Shown: one piece after another, positions 8,323 to 63,669 of the stretch
Layout of the letters: every line of letters starts with the position of its first letter
Position numbering within the stretch: position 1 is the first letter of the stretch
Source of the DNA: Bacteroidaceae bacterium
Lineage (GTDB): Bacteria > Bacteroidota > Bacteroidia > Bacteroidales > Bacteroidaceae
DNA: 64,000 bases
Direction of reading: 5' to 3'
Assembly: GCA_017444485.1 (NCBI GenBank)
Contig: JAFSWM010000103.1
Location: 4,845-68,844 of the forward strand
The notes under the pieces: model-generated
What the model saw: the letters and a program-made list of their open reading frames with translations, nothing else
What the model was told of the DNA's origin: nothing
The model's database searches: none
Position numbers and translations under genes: made by a program

Positions 8323-9444
8323 ATGACAGAAGACCTCACAGGAAAGCGCGTGTGTGTGCTGCTATCGGGCGGCGTGGACAGCGCCGTGGTGACACACCTG
8401 CTCTGCGAAGCGGGCTATCGTCCCGATCTATTCTACATACGCATCGGCATGGACGACGGACAGTTTGCCTGCACCGCCGAGGAAGATATTGAGATGTGCC
8501 AAGCCATTAGTAGGAAGTATGCTCTGCCGCTTGAGGTGGTGGACTTGCAGCAGGAATACTGGGATCGCGTGGTGGGATATACCATTGACCGCGTGAAGCG
8601 TGGCCTCACACCCAATCCCGACGTGATGTGCAACCGGCTGATCAAGTTCGGGGCCTTCGAGCAAAAGGCTGGCCATGCCTACGACCGCATCGCCACAGGA
8701 CACTATGCCACCATCATCGCTGACGGACAAGGGGCGCCATCAGAGGAGTTCGGCAAGGGGCGCTGGCTCGGCACGGCGGAAGATCCCGTGAAGGACCAGA
8801 CCGATTTCCTGGCGCAGATTGACACGCTGCAACTTGCAAAACTTGTGCTGCCACTCGGTCCTCTCCCCAAGGAAGTGGTGCGCCGCATTGCCGAAACGCA
8901 ACGGCTCGCTCCAGCCAAGCGCAAGGACAGCCAGGGCATCTGTTTTCTCGGAAAGATTGACTACAACGACTTTGTCAAGCGTTTCCTCGGCGAGCGCGAG
9001 GGTGATGTCATTGACATAGAAACTGGACGGAAAATAGGCACTCACCGAGGCTATTGGTTCCACACCATTGGGCAACGCAAGGGGCTCGGACTGGGCGGCG
9101 GCCCTTGGTTTGTGGTGAAAAAGGACATCGCCGAGAACACGCTCTATGTGTCGCACGGCTACGACACTCGCTTACAATACGGTCGCCATTTCTGTCTCAG
9201 CGATTTCCACTACATCTCTGCCGATCCCTGGAAGGGCAGGGAGCATGTGCCAGTTTGTTTCAAAATTCGCCACACCGACCATTTTGCTGCCGCCACGCTC
9301 ACCCGAATGGCCGATGGCATACTCAGCATCACCTCAGAGAGCAACATTCAGGGCATCGCCCCAGGTCAGTTCGGCGTTATCTACGACCGCACCTGCACTG
9401 TCTGTGTGGGAAGCGGCGAGATAGCCCCTGCTTCCCCCTGCTGA
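8323..9444 (+). CDS. mnmA: tRNA 2-thiouridine(34) synthase
   Basis: PP-loop motif [13 protein letters not shown], then [17 protein letters not shown] and a C-terminal barrel. Start set at the ATG at 8323 ([10 protein letters not shown]). The track ORF begins at an upstream GTG that would include the terminator hairpin. Confidence 0.9.
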
Positions 9445-17109: not shown

Positions 17110-17133
17110 CACAGCGCACCACTACCCCACCAT

Positions 17134-17178
17134 ACACGTGAAGCGCACCCTCGGTTGTTGAGGGTGCGCTTCACGTGT
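17134..17178. terminator. Bidirectional stem-loop terminator between convergent genes
   Basis: Perfect 19-bp inverted repeat ACACGTGAAGCGCACCCTC (17134-17152) / GAGGGTGCGCTTCACGTGT (17160-17178) with a 7-nt loop. It sits between the GH2 stop (17109) and the hemD-like stop (17200). Confidence 0.7.
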
Positions 17179-17199
17179 GTGGGCGGTATGTGGGTTGCT

Positions 17200-19328: not shown

Positions 19329-19363
19329 GTTGGGGAGAAGGCTAAAAAAATGGCCGGATGGAA

Positions 19364-19939
19364 TTACATTGCGGCGAATTTGGTCAGGGCGGGATTCCAC
19401 TGCGGTGTTTGCTCACAAAGGGTGACAGCAGCGGCAGGATCTGCGGCGACGCACCATAGATCCTTATGAAGCGGGCGCATCAGGTGCTCATCTACGGCGC
19501 GAGAGAGTTGTTGCAAAAGAGGCTCAAAATACCCGCCCACATTCAGCACCACAATGGGGTTGGGAAAAAGACCAAGTTGCTTCCAGGTGATGATCTCCAA
19601 CAATTCCTCAAGGGTACCCACACCGCCAGGCAAAGCGATGCAGGCGTCAGCGAGTTCGGCCATCTTCTCCTTGCGGCTATGCATATCGGGAGTGACAATG
19701 AGGCGCGTCATTCTGCTGTGCTGCCACCCGTGATCGATCATAAACTGCGGAATCACGCCTATAGCCTTTCCACCTGCCGCGAGTGCTCCATCAGTGGCAG
19801 CGGCCATCAACCCCGTGCGGCCCGCTCCGTTAATGAGCGTGTGGCCCCGCTGGGCGATAACTGCGCCGAGGGTACGCGCGGCGGTTGAAAAAGCATCAGA
19901 AACCAGGCCGCTTGAGGCAGCGTAAACGCAGATATTCAT
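19364..19939 (-). CDS. LOG-family (TIGR00730-type) nucleotide phosphoribohydrolase
   Basis: 191 aa. Motifs INGAGRTGLM and ALPGGVGTLEELLE (PGGxGTxxE). Confidence 0.8.
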   Translation of the reverse strand: MNICVYAASSGLVSDAFSTAARTLGAVIAQRGHTLINGAGRTGLMAAATDGALAAGGKAIGVIPQFMIDHGWQHSRMTRLIVTPDMHSRKEKMAELADACIALPGGVGTLEELLEIITWKQLGLFPNPIVVLNVGGYFEPLLQQLSRAVDEHLMRPLHKDLWCVAADPAAAVTLCEQTPQWNPALTKFAAM

Positions 19940-19942
19940 TGA

Positions 19943-21226
19943 TCAGAGATTAAATGCGGCCTTTATCTCTTCCACACGATCGAGTTTTTCCCACGTGAAG
20001 AGTTCCACGATCCTGGTAACGGCTTTGGCTCCCTCGCCAAAGGTTTTACTGACCTTCTGCGGCGTGCGCCCCATGTGGCCATAAGCAGCCGTCTCGGAAT
20101 AGATGGGCTGGCGCAAGCACAAGTCGCGCTCTATGGCATGCGGACGCAAATCAAAGTGCTTCTTCACCCAAGCGGCTATCTCCCCATCGGAAAGAGAGAC
20201 GTGACTGCGACCATAAGTGTTCACATAGACACTGATGGGTTCTGCCACACCGATAGCGTAGGACAATTGCACAAGCATCTCGTCGGCCACACCCGCAGCC
20301 ACCATGTTTTTGGCGATGTGACGGGCGGCATAGGCTGCGCTGCGGTCCACCTTACTGGGGTCTTTGCCACTGAAGGCACCGCCGCCATGAGCACCGCAAC
20401 CACCATAGGTGTCCACGATGATTTTGCGACCTGTAAGGCCTGTGTCGCCCGCCGGACCGCCGATGACAAACTTGCCCGTGGGATTAACATGGTAGTTGAT
20501 ATTACCACGCTCAAACAGTGCACGTACCTCAGGCGTGTGGACACGTTCGGCCATCACACGAGGGATGAGTACGTTTTTCACATCCTCGCGAATACGCTCC
20601 AGCATACGGCGGTCGGCCTCCTCTTGGCTGATGCCATCGGCGGGAATGAACTCGTCGTGCTGTGTGGAGATGACGATGGTGTCAATGCGCTGGGCATGGT
20701 GGTCATCATCGTATTCCACGGTGACTTGGCTCTTGCTGTCGGGGCGAAGATAGGTCATTTGCTTCCCCTCGCGCCGTATCTCAGCAAGGACCTCCATGAG
20801 GTCGTGAGCCAAGGCAAGGGGCAGGGGCATCAGTTGCTCAGTCTCGTTGTTGGCGTACCCGAACATCATGCCTTGGTCGCCCGCGCCCTGCTGCTCGGGG
20901 TCATTGCGCTCTACGCCTCGGTTGATATCGGGAGACTGTTCGTGGATGGCGGAAAGGACGCCGCAAGAGTCGGCACTGAAAAGGTAGTCGTCCTTGGTAT
21001 AACCGATGCGGCGGATTGTTTTGCGGGCCACAGCGGGAAGGTCCACATAGGCTTCGCTTTTCACTTCGCCAGCAATTATCACCTGCCCAGTGGTGACAAG
21101 CGTTTCGCACGCCACCTTGGACTGGGCGTCTTGGGCCAGGAATTCGTCTAATATGGCATCGCTAATTTGGTCGGCTACTTTGTCGGGGTGTCCTTCCGAC
21201 ACGGATTCTGAAGTAAAGAGATACAT
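19943..21226 (-). CDS. metK: S-adenosylmethionine synthetase
   Basis: Motifs [49 protein letters not shown]. Start set at the ATG at 21226 (MYLFTSESV); the track ORF extends 17 codons further into the leader terminator. Confidence 0.93.
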
Positions 21227-21245
21227 GACGCTTTTATATAATAAT

Positions 21246-21280
21246 GAAAAAGGAACGGCAGACGAAGAGTCGGCCATTCC
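21246..21280 (-). terminator. Intrinsic terminator/attenuator inside the metK leader
   Basis: The minus-strand RNA reads GGAAUGGCCG-ACUCUUCGUCU-GCCGUUCC followed by UUUUUC. The 8-bp stem includes one G-U pair. It lies only about 20 nt upstream of the metK ATG, so it cannot be a normal upstream-gene terminator that leaves room for a promoter. Confidence 0.6.
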
Positions 21281-21338
21281 TTTTGTACGGTGTGTCTAAA
21301 ACATTTGTGCAAGGCATGCGTACCTTCTTGTCAGCCAA

Positions 21339-21384
21339 GTTTTAGCATTTTTTACCGTGGTTGCAAGCAGCCAAATCTGTCCAC
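21339..21384 (-). promoter_or_regulatory. Candidate SAM-II/SAM-V-class riboswitch aptamer in the metK leader
   Basis: Minus-strand RNA: GUGGACAGAUUUGGCUGCUUGCAACCACGGUAAAAAAUGCUAAAAC. A GUGG/CCAC stem closes a loop containing AUUUGGC, and that loop can pair with the 3' GCUAAA tail to form an H-type pseudoknot. The UUGCA and A-rich/GCUAAA signatures resemble my memory of the SAM-II consensus. No covariance model was run. Confidence 0.4.
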
Positions 21385-21402
21385 TGTTGTATGTTTACGG
21401 TG

Positions 21403-26696: not shown

Positions 26697-26755
26697 GGAA
26701 GTATAACTTCCGGGGCGAGGAAGTATAACTTCCTAAAAGAGGAAGTCCCACTTCC
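26697..26755. repeat. Three phased 15-bp palindromes (GGAAGT-N3-ACTTCC) with a 22-bp period
   Basis: GGAAGTATAACTTCC at 26697-26711 and at 26719-26733; GGAAGTCCCACTTCC at 26741-26755. They lie between the ychF stop (26769) and the lgt start (26650). Confidence 0.85.
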
Positions 26756-26768
26756 TATTTCTGGTACA

Positions 26769-35346: not shown

Positions 35347-35411
35347 AAAACTATGTCCGTATGACTTTAAAGTCACACGGAGTTACTTTAAAGTCACACG
35401 GACATAGTTTT
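35347..35411. terminator. Composite bidirectional terminator hairpin containing two 21-bp-phased direct repeats
   Basis: 14-bp outer arms AAAACTATGTCCGT (35347-35360) / ACGGACATAGTTTT (35398-35411). They enclose two copies of ACTTTAAAGTCACACGGA (35364-35381 and 35385-35402). T-runs follow on both strands. The site lies between convergent genes. Confidence 0.65.
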
Positions 35412-52489: not shown

Positions 52490-52554
52490 AAAACTACCTC
52501 GGACCTTGAAAAAACTATTGGCTTTGCAGTTTTTTCAAGGTCCAAGGTAGTTTT
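52490..52554. repeat. Long near-perfect inverted repeat (27-bp arms, 11-nt loop)
   Basis: AAAACTACCTCGGACCTTGAAAAAACT (52490-52516) pairs with AGTTTTTTCAAGGTCCAAGGTAGTTTT (52528-52554) with one C/T difference. A third, direct copy of the core (TCGGATTTAGAAAAAACTA) sits at 52478-52496. Confidence 0.85.
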
Positions 52555-56188: not shown

Positions 56189-57625
56189 ATGGCAACACAC
56201 GAAAACTTCATCGTAGCGGTGGAACTCGGCTCGTCGAAAGTCAGCGCCGTAGCCGGTGAGAAACAGCCCGACGGCGCGGTGCGCATTCTCGCCTTCGCCC
56301 AAGAGCCGAGCGAAACGTTTATCCGCAAAGGGCGCATCTATAACATCGACAAGTTCGGGCAATGCCTCTCACGCCTCAAAGAAAAACTCGAAAGGGGCGT
56401 CGGCATGAGCGTGGCAAAAGCCTATGTGGGCATCGGCGGCATGGGGATGCACACCATCCTTAACAGCATCACCAAACAATACCCCGACCGCGTGAAGGTG
56501 ACCGAACAGATGATCGATGTGCTTCAAGATGAGAACAACGGCTCACAGCCCATCGACCGCGACATTATCGGCGTGGTGCCGCAGGAATATAAACTCGACG
56601 CACACCGCACCGATGACCCCGTCGGCATACTCACCCAGAGCCTCACAGGCAATTTCCTCAACATCGTGGCTGCGGCACAAACCAAGCAACAAATCATTGA
56701 CAACTTCGCGCAATGCCGCATAGAAGTGGTGGACCTGCCGGTCACCTTCCTCTCCCTGGCCGACAACATGGTGTCTGCTCGGCAGCGGCAGAGTGGCTGC
56801 GTCTTCGTGGACATGGGGGCACAAACCACCAGCGTGGCCATCTTCAAGGGCGGCCTGCTGAGGCACCTCGCCGTCATACCCCTCGGAGGAGGCAACATCA
56901 CCACCGACATTGCCACGGCATACCAAATTGACGAAGCAGAAGCCGAAGAAATCAAACTGAAGTACAACTTCGGCATGGAATACATCGACGAAGAGGACAA
57001 AGAAATCTTCACTACCAGCGACGGACGCGAATACCCGCTCAACGACCTCAAGAAACTGGTCAGCGCGCGCCTTGAAGAAATCATCCTCAACGTGAAGTAC
57101 CAGATTGATCTCTCTCAATATAAACTCTCACAACTCATGAGTGGCATCGTGCTCACCGGCGGCGTGGCCAAGACCGGCGGCATTGACAGCGCATTCAAAC
57201 TCGTCACCGACATCCAAAGTCCCGTGCTGGTGTCGCGCGGGCTGAAACTCACCTATCGCACCGGCAAGCAGGACTTCAACAAGGATGGTTCCTACGATTG
57301 CGCCATCTCGCTTATCGACAAAGGAAACGAAAACTGCTGCGGCGGCCCCGTGGTGCGTCCCACCGACATCTTTAGTCCCCAAATTAAGCCAGAGAAACCC
57401 GCCGAACAGCCAGTGACACCCGCTGACCCACAGAAGCCCGCCACAAGTACCGTATCAGAAGACGGACGGATCAGAGGCGGCGACATCGCAACGGGAATGG
57501 CGCAAGAAAAAGAAACCACGGCAGAAGAACAGCCCAAGAAGACTTCCAAACTGAAGGCCGGGCTCGGACGCTTAGCCAACTGGGCCAAAGGAGGGCTCAC
57601 AAAGCTCGTCTCAGAAGACGACTAA
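56189..57625 (+). CDS. ftsA: Cell division protein FtsA
   Basis: 478 aa from the ATG at 56189 (MATHENFIVAVELGSSKVSAV). Actin-like ATPase motifs (VDMGAQTTSVAIF, LTGGVAKTGG). Long low-complexity C-terminus ending in an amphipathic helix (LGRLANWAKGGLTKLV). Confidence 0.9.
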   Translation: MATHENFIVAVELGSSKVSAVAGEKQPDGAVRILAFAQEPSETFIRKGRIYNIDKFGQCLSRLKEKLERGVGMSVAKAYVGIGGMGMHTILNSITKQYPDRVKVTEQMIDVLQDENNGSQPIDRDIIGVVPQEYKLDAHRTDDPVGILTQSLTGNFLNIVAAAQTKQQIIDNFAQCRIEVVDLPVTFLSLADNMVSARQRQSGCVFVDMGAQTTSVAIFKGGLLRHLAVIPLGGGNITTDIATAYQIDEAEAEEIKLKYNFGMEYIDEEDKEIFTTSDGREYPLNDLKKLVSARLEEIILNVKYQIDLSQYKLSQLMSGIVLTGGVAKTGGIDSAFKLVTDIQSPVLVSRGLKLTYRTGKQDFNKDGSYDCAISLIDKGNENCCGGPVVRPTDIFSPQIKPEKPAEQPVTPADPQKPATSTVSEDGRIRGGDIATGMAQEKETTAEEQPKKTSKLKAGLGRLANWAKGGLTKLVSEDD

Positions 57626-57649
57626 ATTTTCATTGAACACTTTTTTCTT

Positions 57650-57724
57650 TGAACATTGACCGTTGAACATTGAACATTAAACATACACTTGTGGCGAATG
57701 GTCAATGGTCAATCCTCAATGGTC
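57650..57724. repeat. Heptamer-microsatellite hairpin A in the ftsA-ftsZ spacer
   Basis: Left arm: five tandem 7-mers TGAACAT/TGACCGT/TAAACAT (57650-57684). Right arm: four 7-mers AATGGTC/AATCCTC (57697-57724), which are the reverse complement of the GACCATT variant. Confidence 0.85.
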
Positions 57725-57757
57725 AATAAAGCAAAACCTCAAAACAGATATATCAAT

Positions 57758-60309: not shown

Positions 60310-61587
60310 TTATCCTTCGTTTAACTCTTTTCTGACCACCACCTTGTCAATGCGGGCTCCGTCCATCTGAGCCACTTGGAGCGTAAATCCGTTCCATGCG
60401 ATGTGCTCGCCGCTCTGAGGGATGTGTTCCAACAAGGTGAGGAACAGGCCTCCCACTGTGGTGTAGTCGTTCTTGTAAAGGTCCTCCTTGTCAAAATAGG
60501 CCAGGAAGTCGTACACAGCGCATTGCCCGCTCACCACCCAACTTTCGCCATCGGCCCTAACGATGATGTCGGGCACGCCGCCATCGTCATCGATACTGCC
60601 CACAAGTCCTTCAAGAATATCTTTCAGCGCGAGCAGGCCGCACACTTCGCCAAACTCGTCAATGACGAGTCCGCAGTTGGTGCGGTCCTTTTTGAGTTCG
60701 GAAAGGGCTTTATAGACCGACATACTCTCTGTGAGGTAGGTGGGTTCACGGGCTATGGTCCGGAGGTCGAAACTTTCCTTGCCGACAATCAGCACCAATT
60801 CTTTAAGAGAGGCCACTCCCACTGTATTGCCCAACGAACCGTCCACCACGGGGTAGTTGGCGAAAGCATTTTCCGACAACACGGCCTCCACTTCCTTGCT
60901 GCTCATGGCTACATCGAGCGTGACAAGGTCGCCTCGGTGGGTCATCAATCCTGCCACGTTTTGGTCGCCGAGATAGAGCACTCGCTCCATGATGTCTTGC
61001 TCCATCTCCCCCAGTTCTCCAGCACGTGTGCCCTCTTCAATGACGGATTTCACCTCGGCTTCGGTGACATGAGTGTCTTCGGCTTTCAAGCGAAACAGGT
61101 GGATAAGCAGTTCTGTGTTTTTGGAAAGTAGCCACACGGCGGGCTTTGCCAGCGTGGCGAGGAAAAGCATGAAGGGGGCAATGGCACGGGCCAGTGTGTC
61201 GGCCAGGTCGAGCCCGATGCGCTTTGGAAAAAGTTCGCCCAACTCCACCTGTACATAGGTGGCCACAATCACAATGATGGTCTTAGAGAGTAGCGGGGCC
61301 AACGATGCTGCCACGCCGAGCCGCTGCAACCAAGCGGCGAAATCGCCTGCCAATGCCTCGCCGGTGTAAATACCTGTGAGGATGGTCACTACCGTGATGC
61401 CTATTTGGCAGGTGGAGAGGTACTTGTCGGGGTCGGCCTGTAAATCAAGCGCGGCTTTAGCGGCACGGCTCCCAGCGCGGGCTTCGCTCTGCAACTTGGT
61501 GCGGCGGGCACTGATAAGTGCTACCTCGGCCAGGCAGAAGAAGCCGTTGATGAACACCAATACAAAGATTATCAGAAAGTCTATCAT
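60310..61587 (-). CDS. CNNM/DUF21-CBS-CorC_HlyC family (hemolysin-like) membrane protein
   Basis: 425 aa. N-terminal DUF21 TM domain (FINGFFCLAEVALISAR), a tandem CBS region, and a C-terminal CorC/HlyC transporter-associated domain. Confidence 0.8.
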   Translation of the reverse strand: MIDFLIIFVLVFINGFFCLAEVALISARRTKLQSEARAGSRAAKAALDLQADPDKYLSTCQIGITVVTILTGIYTGEALAGDFAAWLQRLGVAASLAPLLSKTIIVIVATYVQVELGELFPKRIGLDLADTLARAIAPFMLFLATLAKPAVWLLSKNTELLIHLFRLKAEDTHVTEAEVKSVIEEGTRAGELGEMEQDIMERVLYLGDQNVAGLMTHRGDLVTLDVAMSSKEVEAVLSENAFANYPVVDGSLGNTVGVASLKELVLIVGKESFDLRTIAREPTYLTESMSVYKALSELKKDRTNCGLVIDEFGEVCGLLALKDILEGLVGSIDDDGGVPDIIVRADGESWVVSGQCAVYDFLAYFDKEDLYKNDYTTVGGLFLTLLEHIPQSGEHIAWNGFTLQVAQMDGARIDKVVVRKELNEG

Positions 61588-61600
61588 AGCATTACTTGGG

Positions 61601-61608
61601 CAAAAGTA
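61601..61608 (-). promoter_or_regulatory. -7 promoter box (TACTTTTG on the minus strand) for the CNNM-family gene
   Basis: The reverse complement of CAAAAGTA lies about 14 nt upstream of the ATG at 61587. Confidence 0.4.
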
Positions 61609-61631: not shown

Positions 61632-61639
61632 TACTTTTG
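61632..61639 (+). promoter_or_regulatory. -7 promoter box (TACTTTTG) for the DUF4254-GT9 operon
   Basis: Plus-strand TAnnTTTG, back-to-back with the box at 61601-61608. It predicts a 5' UTR of about 230 nt containing repeat hairpin B. Confidence 0.4.
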
Positions 61640-61663
61640 CGCTGATATACCTAATTAGGTTGT

Positions 61664-61838
61664 TTATCATTGACCATTGATGATTGATGATTGATGATTG
61701 ACCATTGAACATTGACCATTGAACATTGACCATTGAACATTAGCAAAAACCATTGCAGCCGGTAATGGCGGGTGGTCAATGGTCAACGGTCAATGGTCAA
61801 TGAAAAAAATGGTCAATGTTCAACGGTCAATGAATAAC
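61664..61838. repeat. Heptamer-microsatellite hairpin B (largest copy)
   Basis: Left arm: ten in-phase 7-mers TGACCAT/TGATGAT/TGAACAT (61671-61740). Spacer of 33 nt with a small CCATT/AATGG stem. Right arm: GGTCAAT/GGTCAAC x4 (61774-61801), GAAAAAAAT, then GGTCAAT/GTTCAAC/GGTCAAT (61811-61831). Confidence 0.9.
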
Positions 61839-61873
61839 AGCCTCATAACCTCAATTAACTCCTTTTTCTCACA

Positions 61874-62476
61874 ATGTCTTTCACAGAAAAAGCATGGCCC
61901 GTGTTTGAGCGGGTTATTGCCGACTATCACGTTACGGACAACGTGGATGCTCCCATGCCTGCTCCATATCCTGCTTCATCGCTTGAGGCTCTGCTATATC
62001 GTAAATGCTGGATTGACACGGTGCAATGGCACCTCGAAGACTTGATTCGCGACCCGCTCATTGACCCTGCCGAAGCGCTGGCGCTGAAACGCCGCATTGA
62101 TAAGAGCAACCAGGACCGTACCGACTTGGTGGAGCAAATCGACGAATACTTCCTCAGTGGGGTTCAGGCTGAACCTGCTCCCGATGCTCCCATCAACACC
62201 GAGACCCCTGCCTGGGCTGTTGACCGCCTGAGCATTCTCGCACTGAAAATATACCACATGCGTGAACAGACTGAACGCGAAGATGCCGACGAGGCGCACA
62301 AAGCACGTTGCAAGGCGAAACTGGGCGTATTGCTCATCCAGCACGAAGACCTCAGCCAAGCGCTCGACACCCTGCTCGACGACATTGCAGCAGGTCGGAA
62401 GCGTATGCGCCTCTACAAACAAATGAAGATGTACAACGACCCCAGCACCAACCCCGTGCTGTACGGCAACAAATAA
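61874..62476 (+). CDS. DUF4254-like protein
   Basis: 200 aa. It is soluble and helical (WIDTVQWHLEDLIR..., VDRLSILALKIYHM). It sits directly upstream of a GT9 gene, the pairing I recall for DUF4254 in Bacteroidota. Confidence 0.6.
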   Translation: MSFTEKAWPVFERVIADYHVTDNVDAPMPAPYPASSLEALLYRKCWIDTVQWHLEDLIRDPLIDPAEALALKRRIDKSNQDRTDLVEQIDEYFLSGVQAEPAPDAPINTETPAWAVDRLSILALKIYHMREQTEREDADEAHKARCKAKLGVLLIQHEDLSQALDTLLDDIAAGRKRMRLYKQMKMYNDPSTNPVLYGNK

Positions 62477-62482
62477 GTATTA

Positions 62483-62571
62483 GGTTATAAGGTTTTGAGG
62501 TTATAAGGTTATAAGGGACTGCGCGATGCCCTCATAACCTAATAACCTCAAAACCTCAAAACCTCAAAACC
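62483..62571. repeat. Octamer-microsatellite hairpin C in the DUF4254-GT9 spacer
   Basis: Left arm: GGTTATAA GGTTTTGA GGTTATAA GGTTATAA (62483-62514). Loop: GGG-ACTGCGCGATG-CCC. Right arm: TCATAACC TAATAACC TCAAAACC x3 (62532-62571), running straight into the ATG at 62574. Confidence 0.9.
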
Positions 62572-62573
62572 TC

Positions 62574-63581
62574 ATGAAAGTCGCTGTTCTGCGTTTTTCG
62601 GCCCTTGGCGATGTGGCGATGACCGTGCCGGTGCTTTGGAGTGCGGCGCAGCAAAACGCTGGAGCGGAGTTTGTTGTCGTGACGCGGCGGCCTTTCTGTG
62701 CACTCTATGAGGACGTGGCGGCAAACGTCAGCACCTATGGCTGCGACCTCCACGGCTCACACCGGGGGATTTTCGGCATGTGGCGGCTTGCGAGGGAACT
62801 GGGGGAACTGGGTGTGGATACCGTGGCTGACTTGCACGACGTGTTGCGCACCAAGATGCTCCGATTCTTTATGCGCTTGCACGGATGCAAGGTGAGCCGT
62901 ATCAACAAGGGACGGGGCGAGAAGCGCTTGCTGGTGAAGAATGGCTGGAAACGTTCTGAACCGCTGCGGCCACAAACAGAACGCTATGCGGACGTGTTTC
63001 GACACTTGGGGCTGCGCTGCGAACCAGTGTTTGACAAACTGCCACTCCCCAGGGCCGATGGCTTGCCTCAGAAGCCCGAAGGTGCACGTTGGATAGGTGT
63101 GGCTCCTGCTGCTGCGCATACTGCCAAAGCGTACCCTGCTGAGCGTCTGCATACTGCCCTTGTTTCGCTGCTTGAAGAACCTGGCGTGAGCCTCTTCTTC
63201 TTCGGTGTTGAGCAAAGTGTGAAGGCTGAAGCCGAAAGCCTTGCGAAGCAGTATTCGGGGCGTGTATTCCACGCCTCGCAATTTGCCCATGGACTGCGTG
63301 CCGAACTTGCGCTGATGGGGCGGCTTGACGTGATGCTCACTATGGACAGTGCCAACATGCACCTTGCTGCGCTGGTAGGGTTGAAGACGGTCAGCATATG
63401 GGGTGCCACCCATCCCTGGGCCGGCTTCCTGGGGTATGGACAGAGCGAGACCGACTGCATACAGTCGCCCAGAGACTGCCGCCCTTGCACCATCTATGGC
63501 GCACACCCGCGCTGCAAAGCCCCGTATCCGTGCTTGCAAGACGTCACGCCCGAAGCCGTTAAAAGGTCCGTTGAACATTGA
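62574..63581 (+). CDS. Glycosyltransferase family 9 (LPS heptosyltransferase-like)
   Basis: 335 aa. MKVAVLRFSALGDVAMTVPVL is a typical GT9 N-terminus. The C-terminal Rossmann half contains MDSANMHLAALVG. Confidence 0.85.
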   Translation: MKVAVLRFSALGDVAMTVPVLWSAAQQNAGAEFVVVTRRPFCALYEDVAANVSTYGCDLHGSHRGIFGMWRLARELGELGVDTVADLHDVLRTKMLRFFMRLHGCKVSRINKGRGEKRLLVKNGWKRSEPLRPQTERYADVFRHLGLRCEPVFDKLPLPRADGLPQKPEGARWIGVAPAAAHTAKAYPAERLHTALVSLLEEPGVSLFFFGVEQSVKAEAESLAKQYSGRVFHASQFAHGLRAELALMGRLDVMLTMDSANMHLAALVGLKTVSIWGATHPWAGFLGYGQSETDCIQSPRDCRPCTIYGAHPRCKAPYPCLQDVTPEAVKRSVEH

Positions 63582-63669
63582 ACGTTGAACATTGAACATT
63601 ACCAATACCGGCAGCAATGGGTTTTGCCAATGGTCAATCATCAATGGTCAATGAAAAAAGTGGTCAATG
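63572..63669. repeat. Heptamer-microsatellite hairpin D, overlapping the GT9 stop and the next gene's start
   Basis: Left arm: TGAACAT TGAACGT TGAACAT TGAACAT (63572-63599), which contains the GT9 stop TGA at 63579-63581. Right arm: AATGGTC AATCATC AATGGTC (63629-63649), followed by GGTCAATGAAAAA, whose ATG (63667) starts the next ORF. Confidence 0.9.

Follow-up and report, generated by a model that had tools for sequence, protein, structure and literature searches.

The locus described here raises a simple question: why does a long hairpin built from tandem heptamers stand directly ahead of a lipopolysaccharide (LPS) core operon in an uncultured Prevotella-like Bacteroidales bacterium (56% G+C)? 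The hairpin, designated element B, occupies positions 61657-61843 of a 64,000-nt stretch of contig JAFSWM010000103.1 (the window), and two siblings are designated A (57630-57727) and C (63571-63669). A metagenome contig of 99.94% identity (L199/L212) supplied ∼15 kb of further sequence, which brought the part of the genome covered to about 78 kb. With some reserve, we consider element B to be probably one copy of a lineage-specific family of palindromic simple sequence repeat (SSR) elements that is selfish or near-neutral, has arms changed by slippage and is transcribed passively, rather than a switch specific to LPS genes. The family layout is a short unique core placed between two inverted arrays, the unit being either the 7-nt TTGAMCA or the 8-nt TWAGGTTA.

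Element B forms one 187-nt imperfect stem-loop with arms of tandem TTGAMCA and TGKTCAA heptamers, respectively. The initial annotation had described ten phased heptamers at 61671-61740 (TGACCAT, three TGATGAT, TGACCAT, then TGAACAT and TGACCAT in alternation) and, after a 33-nt spacer, mirrored GGTCAAT/GGTCAAC units at 61774-61831; this order and the mirrored units were both confirmed. It had omitted that the 3' array consists of 4 + 3 units interrupted by a 9-nt A-run, GAAAAAAAT (61802-61810). Tandem Repeats Finder reported a period of 7 with 10.6 copies (score 85) for the 5' array and 8.3 copies for the 3' array, and an old 30-nt duplication within the 3' arm (period 30, 1.9 copies, 88% matches). 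With head-to-tail 7-nt units in these copy numbers, and with unit-number differences at a conserved site (see below), element B is a long heptanucleotide SSR. About 3e-11 matches to (TTGAMCA)x4 would be expected by chance in 64 kb. Element B was found in three independent assemblies and is therefore not an assembly artefact.

The predicted fold is a single long stem-loop covering 61657-61843. On the plus strand it has a free energy of -84.5 kcal/mol, compared with -50.4 +/- 4.5 kcal/mol for shuffled sequences (z = -7.6; 0 of 200 shuffles as good), and the minus strand folds at -83.9 kcal/mol (z = -7.2). The outer stem includes one octamer-type unit per side (ATTAGGTT ... AACCTCAA). Using Rfam 15 at gathering and permissive thresholds, no family was matched; only look-alikes of plant and animal microRNA hairpins appeared, all below threshold. 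The 5' arm carries TGA stop codons in all three frames, and the 3' arm is open in all frames and contains ATGs. Note that open 3' arms with ATGs draw gene callers: the ftsZ call in the relative L200 is 456 aa instead of 438 aa. A small open reading frame (ORF) beginning in the 3' arm (61779-62045) was dropped as out of frame with DUF4254 and not conserved. For lack of spacers a CRISPR-like array was likewise dropped, and iterons or a replication origin did not suit the many sites and the context of housekeeping operons.

Two TAnnTTTG boxes had been placed at 61601-61608 (minus strand) and 61632-61639 (plus strand), and both lie at these coordinates. The motif is enriched across the window (42 observed versus 18.7 expected), and both boxes are retained in a relative with 79% protein identity (L205). 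Element B begins 18 nt downstream of the plus-strand -7 box and ends 30 nt before the DUF4254 ATG. These positions support the proposed location downstream of a conserved box, and element B probably sits in the 5' leader of the DUF4254-GT9 operon.

Three further elements of the same design had been reported in nearby spacers. All of them exist, but the one at 62479-62575 has 8-nt units (TWAGGTTA / AACCTMAW) and belongs to another family. The statement that none occurs elsewhere in the 64 kb was correct, the first 57 kb containing no other heptamer or octamer array. Elements A and C fold weakly (z = -2.4 and -1.0, respectively) because their TTGAACA arms face TGGTCAA arms, with one mismatch per unit. 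In element C, the GT9 stop codon TGA (63579-81) lies in the second unit and the DUF3316 ATG (63667-69) in the last. The octamer hairpin spans the interval from the DUF4254 stop to the GT9 start exactly, and its last unit supplies the GT9 ATG (62574). No terminator-like site (G+C-rich stem followed by a U-run) was detected by a terminator scan at any of the four elements. A small hairpin, TCGTCTCAGAAGACGA, followed by a T-rich run at 57606-57621, overlaps the ftsA stop just before element A; terminator-like matches in the scanned region did not exceed in total the number expected by chance.

Several features relate the copies to one another. Apart from two mismatches, reverse-complementing the loop core of B (CCATTGCAGCCGGTAATGG) gives that of C (CCAATACCGGCAGCAATGG), and an asymmetric motif, TCAA[TA]GAAAAAA[AG]TG[GT]TCAATGAA, is common to B, C and the reverse strand of A. 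These copies therefore derive from one another and are not independent slippage accidents. When all retrieved loci were searched for the A-run motif of A, B and C, only this genome proved to have it; the motif is therefore a marker of the local family and not a general feature. A metagenome scan using the B/C loop core CCATTGCWGCCGGTAWTGG returned 120 matches, none with heptamers nearby, and these were taken as chance matches. The octamer core ATAAGGGGCTGCGC[AG]ACGACCT occurs six times, five of them beyond the window on L199/L212. Besides the spacers held by heptamer elements, the octamer family fills four more within the next 15 kb. The five copies are located at the end of an S41 peptidase gene, after a conserved 42-aa ORF and in the MerR-radA spacer; in this last spacer three octamer modules of 66 nt stand in tandem, with a 14/27-nt SSR (TAACTCCCAAATAT x5.5) after them. 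A scan of GTDB with this core identified one additional genome, an uncultured Bacteroidales metagenome-assembled genome (MAG) of 56.7% G+C (L211, 5450-5545), and the octamer family is therefore narrow.

The elements are clustered. Between 57.6 and ∼78 kb they occupy 7 of ∼9 spacers of at least 50 nt, whereas the first 57 kb has ∼18 spacers measuring 60 nt or more, all of them element-free (Fisher p ∼4e-5, by our own arithmetic on spacer counts). Base composition did not explain the clustering. Folding energies are similar on both strands, octamer elements fold better in the antisense direction, and there is no consistent strand preference; this points to symmetry at the DNA level rather than to RNA tuned on the sense strand.

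Relatives were located through the DUF4254 protein. The 99.94%-identical contig L199 differs by five single-nucleotide polymorphisms (SNPs) and no indels over 8127 nt spanning the four elements, unit numbers being compared between consensus assemblies only. Two contigs with 94.5% DNA identity to the window over 7.7 kb (L200 and L201) carry A, B and the octamer element. Element B occupies the same site in them, with no difference in the outer stem, in the loop (one A in L200 excepted) or across the 80 nt that hold both promoter boxes. Unit number differs between these lineages and the window: in L200 the 5' arm of B is 50 nt shorter (3 units versus 10) and the 3' arm 30 nt shorter. Element A of L200 has the same unit number as in the window, with four substitutions in its 5' arm and none compensated in its 3' arm. 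As judged from these alignments, the elements are stable at very short divergence, with arms changing by unit blocks over about 5% divergence. In both contigs the sequence breaks off within the octamer element's 5' arm (L200:7603-7636 and L201:4699-4732), as expected of a multi-copy repeat, which breaks assembly. Breakage of short-read assemblies is a practical consequence of these elements, as is the creation of length-variable protein loops. Contigs often end inside heptamer or octamer arrays (L086, L109, L117, L132, L140, L157, L190 and L198).

Relatives with 77-83% DUF4254 identity (L205-207, L202-204, L208, L209 and L210) have no heptamer or octamer elements, the full gene order being kept only in L205-207. 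Their spacers measure 72 nt for ftsA-ftsZ, from overlapping to 109 nt for DUF4254-GT9, 9 nt for GT9-DUF3316 and 78-131 nt for CNNM-DUF4254, except in L205-207, where the last is 275 nt. Since the elements are absent and the spacers short in these next relatives, the elements are recent additions to otherwise compact operons. The longer spacer of L205-207 contains an unrelated, non-repetitive hairpin of ∼190 nt (L205:6790-6990; -76 kcal/mol, z = -7.9), at the 5' untranslated region (UTR) site matching that of element B and immediately following the conserved TAnnTTTG box. Where L205 has no element, we observed a single TTGACAA in ftsA-ftsZ (2820-2840) and TTGAGATG in GT9-DUF3316 (8670-8692), which may be seed or target sequences containing TTGA.

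These comparisons bear directly on the initial suggestion that the element is a phase-variation device for the LPS-core locus, in which slippage of 7-nt units would reversibly alter expression of the glycosyltransferase operon. Unit number does differ between two lineages, heptamer tracts are slippage-prone according to the summary of Mrazek 2007 given in PMC4679880, and the operon encodes an LPS-core enzyme. However, the repeats lie outside ORFs and downstream of the -7 box, not between promoter elements, and a change in unit number therefore alters neither reading frame nor promoter spacing. No hypermutability was seen, there being no indels compared with five SNPs in 8.1 kb of the 99.94%-identical contig. 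Elements of the same design also stand at ftsA-ftsZ and in spacers of S41 peptidase, GH92, MerR and RadA genes, arrays lie inside purM, lysS and carA of related genomes, genes unrelated to LPS, and the nearest element-free relatives keep the same operon with short spacers. We consider such a switch exceedingly improbable; the suggestion is not supported, and a tempting story of a phase-variable LPS core can be set aside.

The relatives also bear on the idea that the hairpins are functional RNA stem-loops retained because they act in cis once transcribed. Possible roles would be a 5'-terminal stabilizer (B), an intercistronic barrier or RNase site, or the juxtaposition of stop and start codons for coupled translation. 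All copies in the window lie in probably transcribed co-directional spacers or in a 5' leader. Element B begins ∼14 nt from the predicted 5' end, at the place where L205 has its unrelated hairpin (-76 kcal/mol), and both arms of B expanded together. The interval from DUF4254 stop to GT9 ATG is filled exactly by the octamer hairpin; element C has the GT9 stop within its 5' arm and the DUF3316 ATG within its last unit, two codons that lie 9 nt apart in L205. Against this, A and C are barely more stable than shuffled sequences and have a systematic mismatch in each unit, folding energy gives the sense strand no advantage, the substitutions in A have no compensating partners, close relatives manage with hairpin-free versions of the same operons, and no terminator-like tail follows any element. 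A cis-acting role is unlikely in our estimate, although it deserves more weight than the remaining alternatives.

Exact (TTGAMCA)4 arrays were found at more than 118 places in one-genome-per-species GTDB contigs. About half of the matches listed are in rumen or gut Prevotella/Bacteroidales MAGs; other carriers among them are Chitinophagaceae, cyanobacteria (Calothrix, Fischerella and Xenococcus), Chloroflexota, Planctomycetota and Acidobacteriota. Prevotella sp. P6B1 (L151) and Prevotellaceae HUN156 (L160) are carriers that have been cultured. The arrays listed are one-way or paired, many being unpaired. Clear pairs occur in 10 other rumen Bacteroidales loci among the matches listed, so that with the three in the window the TTGAMCA-first polarity holds in 13 of 13 Bacteroidales pairs; the reverse polarity was seen, among the matches listed, at one Anaerolinea and one Acidobacteria locus. 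Between genomes, the loops are not conserved. A search of viral contigs gave 28 matches to (TTGAMCA)4 and 0, 9 and 6 matches to three heptamers with the same composition in permuted order, a modest preference for the TTGAMCA unit.

Twenty of the 58 Bacteroidales arrays listed lie inside long ORFs, where they are read in the TGKTCAA sense, which is stop-free and encodes peptides resembling WSMVNGQ. In CarA/CarB, GH94, LysRS, alpha-2-macroglobulin, ResB/CcsA and PurM, Pfam domains flank the array on both sides. Such copies occur in related MAGs, none being present in the window itself. The LysRS insert corresponds to a 17-residue gap against solved structures. A full paired hairpin inside a gene was seen once, in PurM (L102), where 28 residues stand in place of 6 and the flanks are ∼90% identical to 3mdo; the arrays in lysS, carA and GH94 are unpaired. 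PurM homologues that are 86-100% identical to the L102 protein have lengths of 396, 403, 410 and 417 aa, steps of 7 aa being equal to three heptamers, and their alignment shows a single hypervariable site in a protein that is otherwise nearly invariant. That in-gene arrays change only by frame-preserving steps of three units is the opposite of a frameshift switch and speaks further against phase variation. Two MAGs (L125 and L145) have an array at the same site of an orthologous outer-membrane protein.

The hypervariable in-frame hairpins at this one purM site of rumen Prevotella are the most intriguing lead. The site carries TTGACCA/TGGTCAA, AGAATGA/TCATTCT or AAAATTC/GAATTTT hairpins, or a non-repetitive GC-rich hairpin for which the surrounding 174-nt stretch folds at -108 kcal/mol. 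A parallel is seen in the DUF4254 leader, in which one site holds different hairpins in the window and in L205. At such fixed sites (the purM codon position and the DUF4254 5'-UTR), the arms appear to co-evolve rapidly, giving different units in close lineages. We suggest tentatively, as a possibility that we rate as doubtful, that an undescribed process in rumen Prevotellaceae creates and maintains heptamer-armed palindromes at fixed sites, even inside essential genes. If true, these palindromes would represent either a new mobile palindromic class with site preference or an arm-copying homogenization coupled to 7-nt slippage.

These distributions are also the evidence by which a classical MITE, a miniature transposable element with inverted repeats, has to be weighed. 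In such a non-autonomous element the heptamer arrays would be terminal inverted repeats, offering multiple transposase-binding sites, and mobilization would occur in trans through a transposase gene situated elsewhere in the genome. The inverted terminal arrays around a variable core, the small size, the multiple copies with homologous cores, the presence/absence polymorphism between relatives and the uniform TTGAMCA-first polarity of the 13 Bacteroidales copies listed all fit this account, as does the finding that (TTGAMCA)4 is 3-fold or more commoner in viral contigs than the permuted heptamers (28 versus 0, 9 and 6). In-frame insertion into genes is likewise as described for Rickettsia palindromic elements (PMC10969869). 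However, neither A, B and C nor the octamer element showed a visible target-site duplication, base-level comparison being precluded by the divergence of the relatives' empty sites, and no related insertion sequence (IS) or transposase was seen in the DNA examined. Arm length varies in slippage-like steps, many arrays are unpaired, and a single transposon family fits poorly with a purM site that holds hairpins with other units (AGAATGA, AAAATTC) or with no repeats. A classical MITE is, by our assessment, distinctly unlikely.

A further explanation places the function in the DNA, with the converging 7-bp heptads acting as cooperative protein-binding sites or the palindromes extruding as cruciforms that affect topology or replication. 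Heptad operators are bound by the omega repressor of plasmid pSM19035. The strict 7-bp phasing, the converging orientation and the symmetry on both strands are consistent with binding arrays; element B adjoins two divergent promoters, and the TTGAMCA heptamer recurs in several phyla. Yet none of the elements covers a promoter, their sites being downstream of the promoter box, intercistronic or within genes. Unit sequence is poorly conserved inside an array (TTGATGA, TTAAACA, TCCTCAA), the relatives do not have the elements, no protein is known as a candidate binder, and the arms of A and C are too mismatched for easy cruciform extrusion. This explanation is considered very improbable.

A selfish or near-neutral palindromic SSR family is favored because the copies are related, their presence is lineage-specific in otherwise minimal spacers and the arms change block-wise, and also because substitutions are uncompensated, folding gives the sense strand no advantage and insertion is tolerated inside housekeeping genes. 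In this family, an element would arise or land at a tolerated site, and its arms would grow and shrink by replication slippage, probably also by copying between arms. Copies would spread through some copying or insertion process. Within the DUF4254-GT9 transcript, element B would be a passive passenger, a large 5'-proximal stem-loop; if it affected the operon at all, by shielding the 5' end somewhat or slowing translation initiation a little, this would be a side effect and not a switch. Several points weigh against this interpretation. The ∼78 kb of genome and the relatives revealed neither a transposase nor a target-site duplication nor a clean empty site, and copy numbers rest on the same 78 kb. 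A hairpin of unrelated sequence stands at the identical 5'-UTR position in L205, and unrelated hairpins occupy one fixed purM site, where the hairpin as such could be selected, which would argue for function. In addition, the changes seen between lineages run in the same direction in the two arms of B, which is compatible with selection for pairing.

The closest precedent is provided by the GGGAATC heptamers of Xanthomonas campestris and X. axonopodis, with about 185 arrays, of which 70-75 form convergent inverted pairs (Rehm et al. 2015, PMC4692102). Those arrays are conserved in position at 83% between related species, with differing lengths and with the pair or single type preserved; most are transcribed, the G-rich unit forms G-quadruplexes, and the function is unknown (PMC4692102). 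They share with element B the intergenic convergent heptamers, the potential stem-loop, the fixed position and the variable length. The TTGAMCA / TGKTCAA units, in contrast, contain no G-tract and do not qualify as G-quadruplex formers, and the phylum is different. Shared loop cores, a coexisting 8-nt family and in-frame arrays in related genomes (once as a full hairpin) also set the present elements apart. In a limited search of the searchable literature, which is not proof of absence, no description of an inverted heptamer-array pair in Bacteroidota was found; literature with doubled heptamer strings yielded primer matches only, and the Prevotella MITE literature nothing relevant. The architecture is thus that of paired heptamer-SSR palindromes, a known but poorly understood kind with precedent in Xanthomonas, here in a new phylum.

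Heptanucleotide repeats of cyanobacteria, the STRRs, were reportedly described by Mazel in 1990. The unit of STRR2, TTGGTCA, is one base off the element B unit once rotated. The likeness to STRRs and other long SSRs lies in the 7-nt units, the mostly intergenic location, the many copies and the length polymorphism, but STRRs are described as one-way arrays and not as hairpin arms around a core. The present elements are a tractable system in which to address the predominance of 7-nt units among bacterial long SSRs. For long SSRs with units of 5-11 nt, length polymorphism is attributed to polymerase slippage (Mrazek 2007, as relayed in PMC4679880 and PMC4692102). TAACTGA heptamers of Beggiatoaceae, Cyanobacteria and Bacteroidetes are direct repeats, with one inverted case among 170 (MacGregor 2015, PMC4679880), and a role in binding single-stranded RNA has been proposed for them (PMC4679880). 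They resemble the present elements in being intergenic heptamers whose arrays often terminate on or beside a start codon, as do element C and the octamer element, and in a patchy phylogeny that includes Bacteroidetes; they differ in their unit and in being direct, whereas element B is inverted and paired.

Other palindromic families were compared. Like REP/BIME (REPIN) sequences, the elements are extragenic palindromes in probably transcribed operon spacers that are clustered, modular (compare the three tandem 66-nt octamer modules), species-specific and strain-variable and may form stem-loops in mRNA. REP arms, however, are a unique palindrome of ∼35 nt (the REP/BIME type being defined by an imperfect one of about 20-40 nt, repeated genome-wide), which element B lacks, its arms being variable-length microsatellites with only the cores unique. 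REPs are also tied to a RAYT (IS200/IS605-like) transposase, and element B has no sequence similarity to REP and no Rfam match. Rickettsia palindromic elements combine, as here, spacer copies with in-frame copies in housekeeping genes that yield a tolerated peptide loop (PMC10969869), but they consist of 100-150 bp of unique sequence encoding a conserved peptide, in contrast to SSR arms and an insert length that changes in steps of three units. The pneumococcal BOX elements and the BrickBuilt MITE of P. gingivalis are likewise dispersed and intergenic, with variable tandem modules and a stable predicted structure, BrickBuilt being a Bacteroidales example that contains a minisatellite (PMC10969869). 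Their modules (45 bp, or about 23-41 bp) are internal, between unique ends; here the ends are arrays of 7-8-nt units and the core is unique.

Table 1. Positions of the repeat elements, their parts and the neighboring genes. Coordinates refer to the window unless a contig is given.
Feature	Coordinates	Strand	Remarks
Sibling A	57630-57727		ftsA-ftsZ spacer; A-run feature on minus strand, inverted relative to B and C
CNNM/CorC gene	60310-61587	-	divergent from DUF4254-GT9
TACTTTTG box, CNNM/CorC gene	61601-61608	-	TAnnTTTG motif; kept in L205
TACTTTTG, predicted Bacteroidetes-type -7 promoter box, DUF4254-GT9 operon	61632-61639	+	TAnnTTTG motif; kept in L205
Element B, outer 5' flank: octamer-type unit ATTAGGTT and degenerate heptamer TTTATCA	61654-61669		pairs with 61831-61843; identical in L200
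Element B, 5' arm: 10 heptamers, TTGACCA, TTGATGA x3, then TTGACCA/TTGAACA alternating	61670-61739		
Element B, loop/core, 33 nt, with mini-palindrome CCATTGCAGCCGGTAATGG at 61750-61768	61740-61772		L200 identical apart from one A
Element B, 3' arm: TGGTCAA, TGGTCAA, CGGTCAA, TGGTCAA, A-run TGAAAAAAA, TGGTCAA, TGTTCAA, CGGTCAA, TGAATAA	61773-61837		
Element B, outer 3' flank CAGCCTCATAACCTCAAT with octamer-type unit AACCTCAA	61838-61855		first 6 nt (61838-61843) close outer stem
DUF4254 gene, first after element B	61874-62476	+	Pfam PF14063, E = 2.3e-63
Octamer hairpin (ATAAGGTT)n - core ATAAGGGACTGCGCGATGCCCTCAT - (AACCTCAA)n	62479-62575		DUF4254-GT9 spacer; -44.1 kcal/mol, z = -7.2
GT9 gene, second, after DUF4254; LPS-core enzyme	62574-63581	+	
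Sibling C	63571-63669		GT9-DUF3316 spacer
Octamer-family copies	L212:12956-13242 and 19349-19612		about 9-16 kb past window end
In-frame (TTGAMCA)n array, LysRS	L124:3783-5609		
In-frame (TTGAMCA)n array, CarA/CarB	L133:62-2938		
In-frame (TTGAMCA)n array, GH94	L108:3892-6387		
In-frame (TTGAMCA)n arrays, alpha-2-macroglobulin, ResB/CcsA group	L147:3-3998; L196:3225-5513		
purM locus of rumen Prevotella-like MAG	L102:4280-5518	-	
purM loci of rumen Prevotella-like MAGs	L376, L377, L378		

Some other features of the window were recorded. A SAM-II riboswitch of the long-loop type was identified at 21332-21390 on the minus strand (59.9 bits versus a gathering score of 44), upstream of the minus-strand ORF 19943-21277. 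Two hairpins with 27-30-nt arms (35347-35411 and 52490-52554), which may constitute a third small palindromic family, have AAAACTA...TAGTTTT termini in common, and TAnnTTTG boxes coincide with their ends. A hairpin with 34-nt arms lies between convergent genes at 17119-17193. At 26697-26757, a 22-nt unit, GGAAGTATAACTTCCTAAAAGA, is present in tandem (x2.8 copies), with a 15-nt palindrome within the unit.

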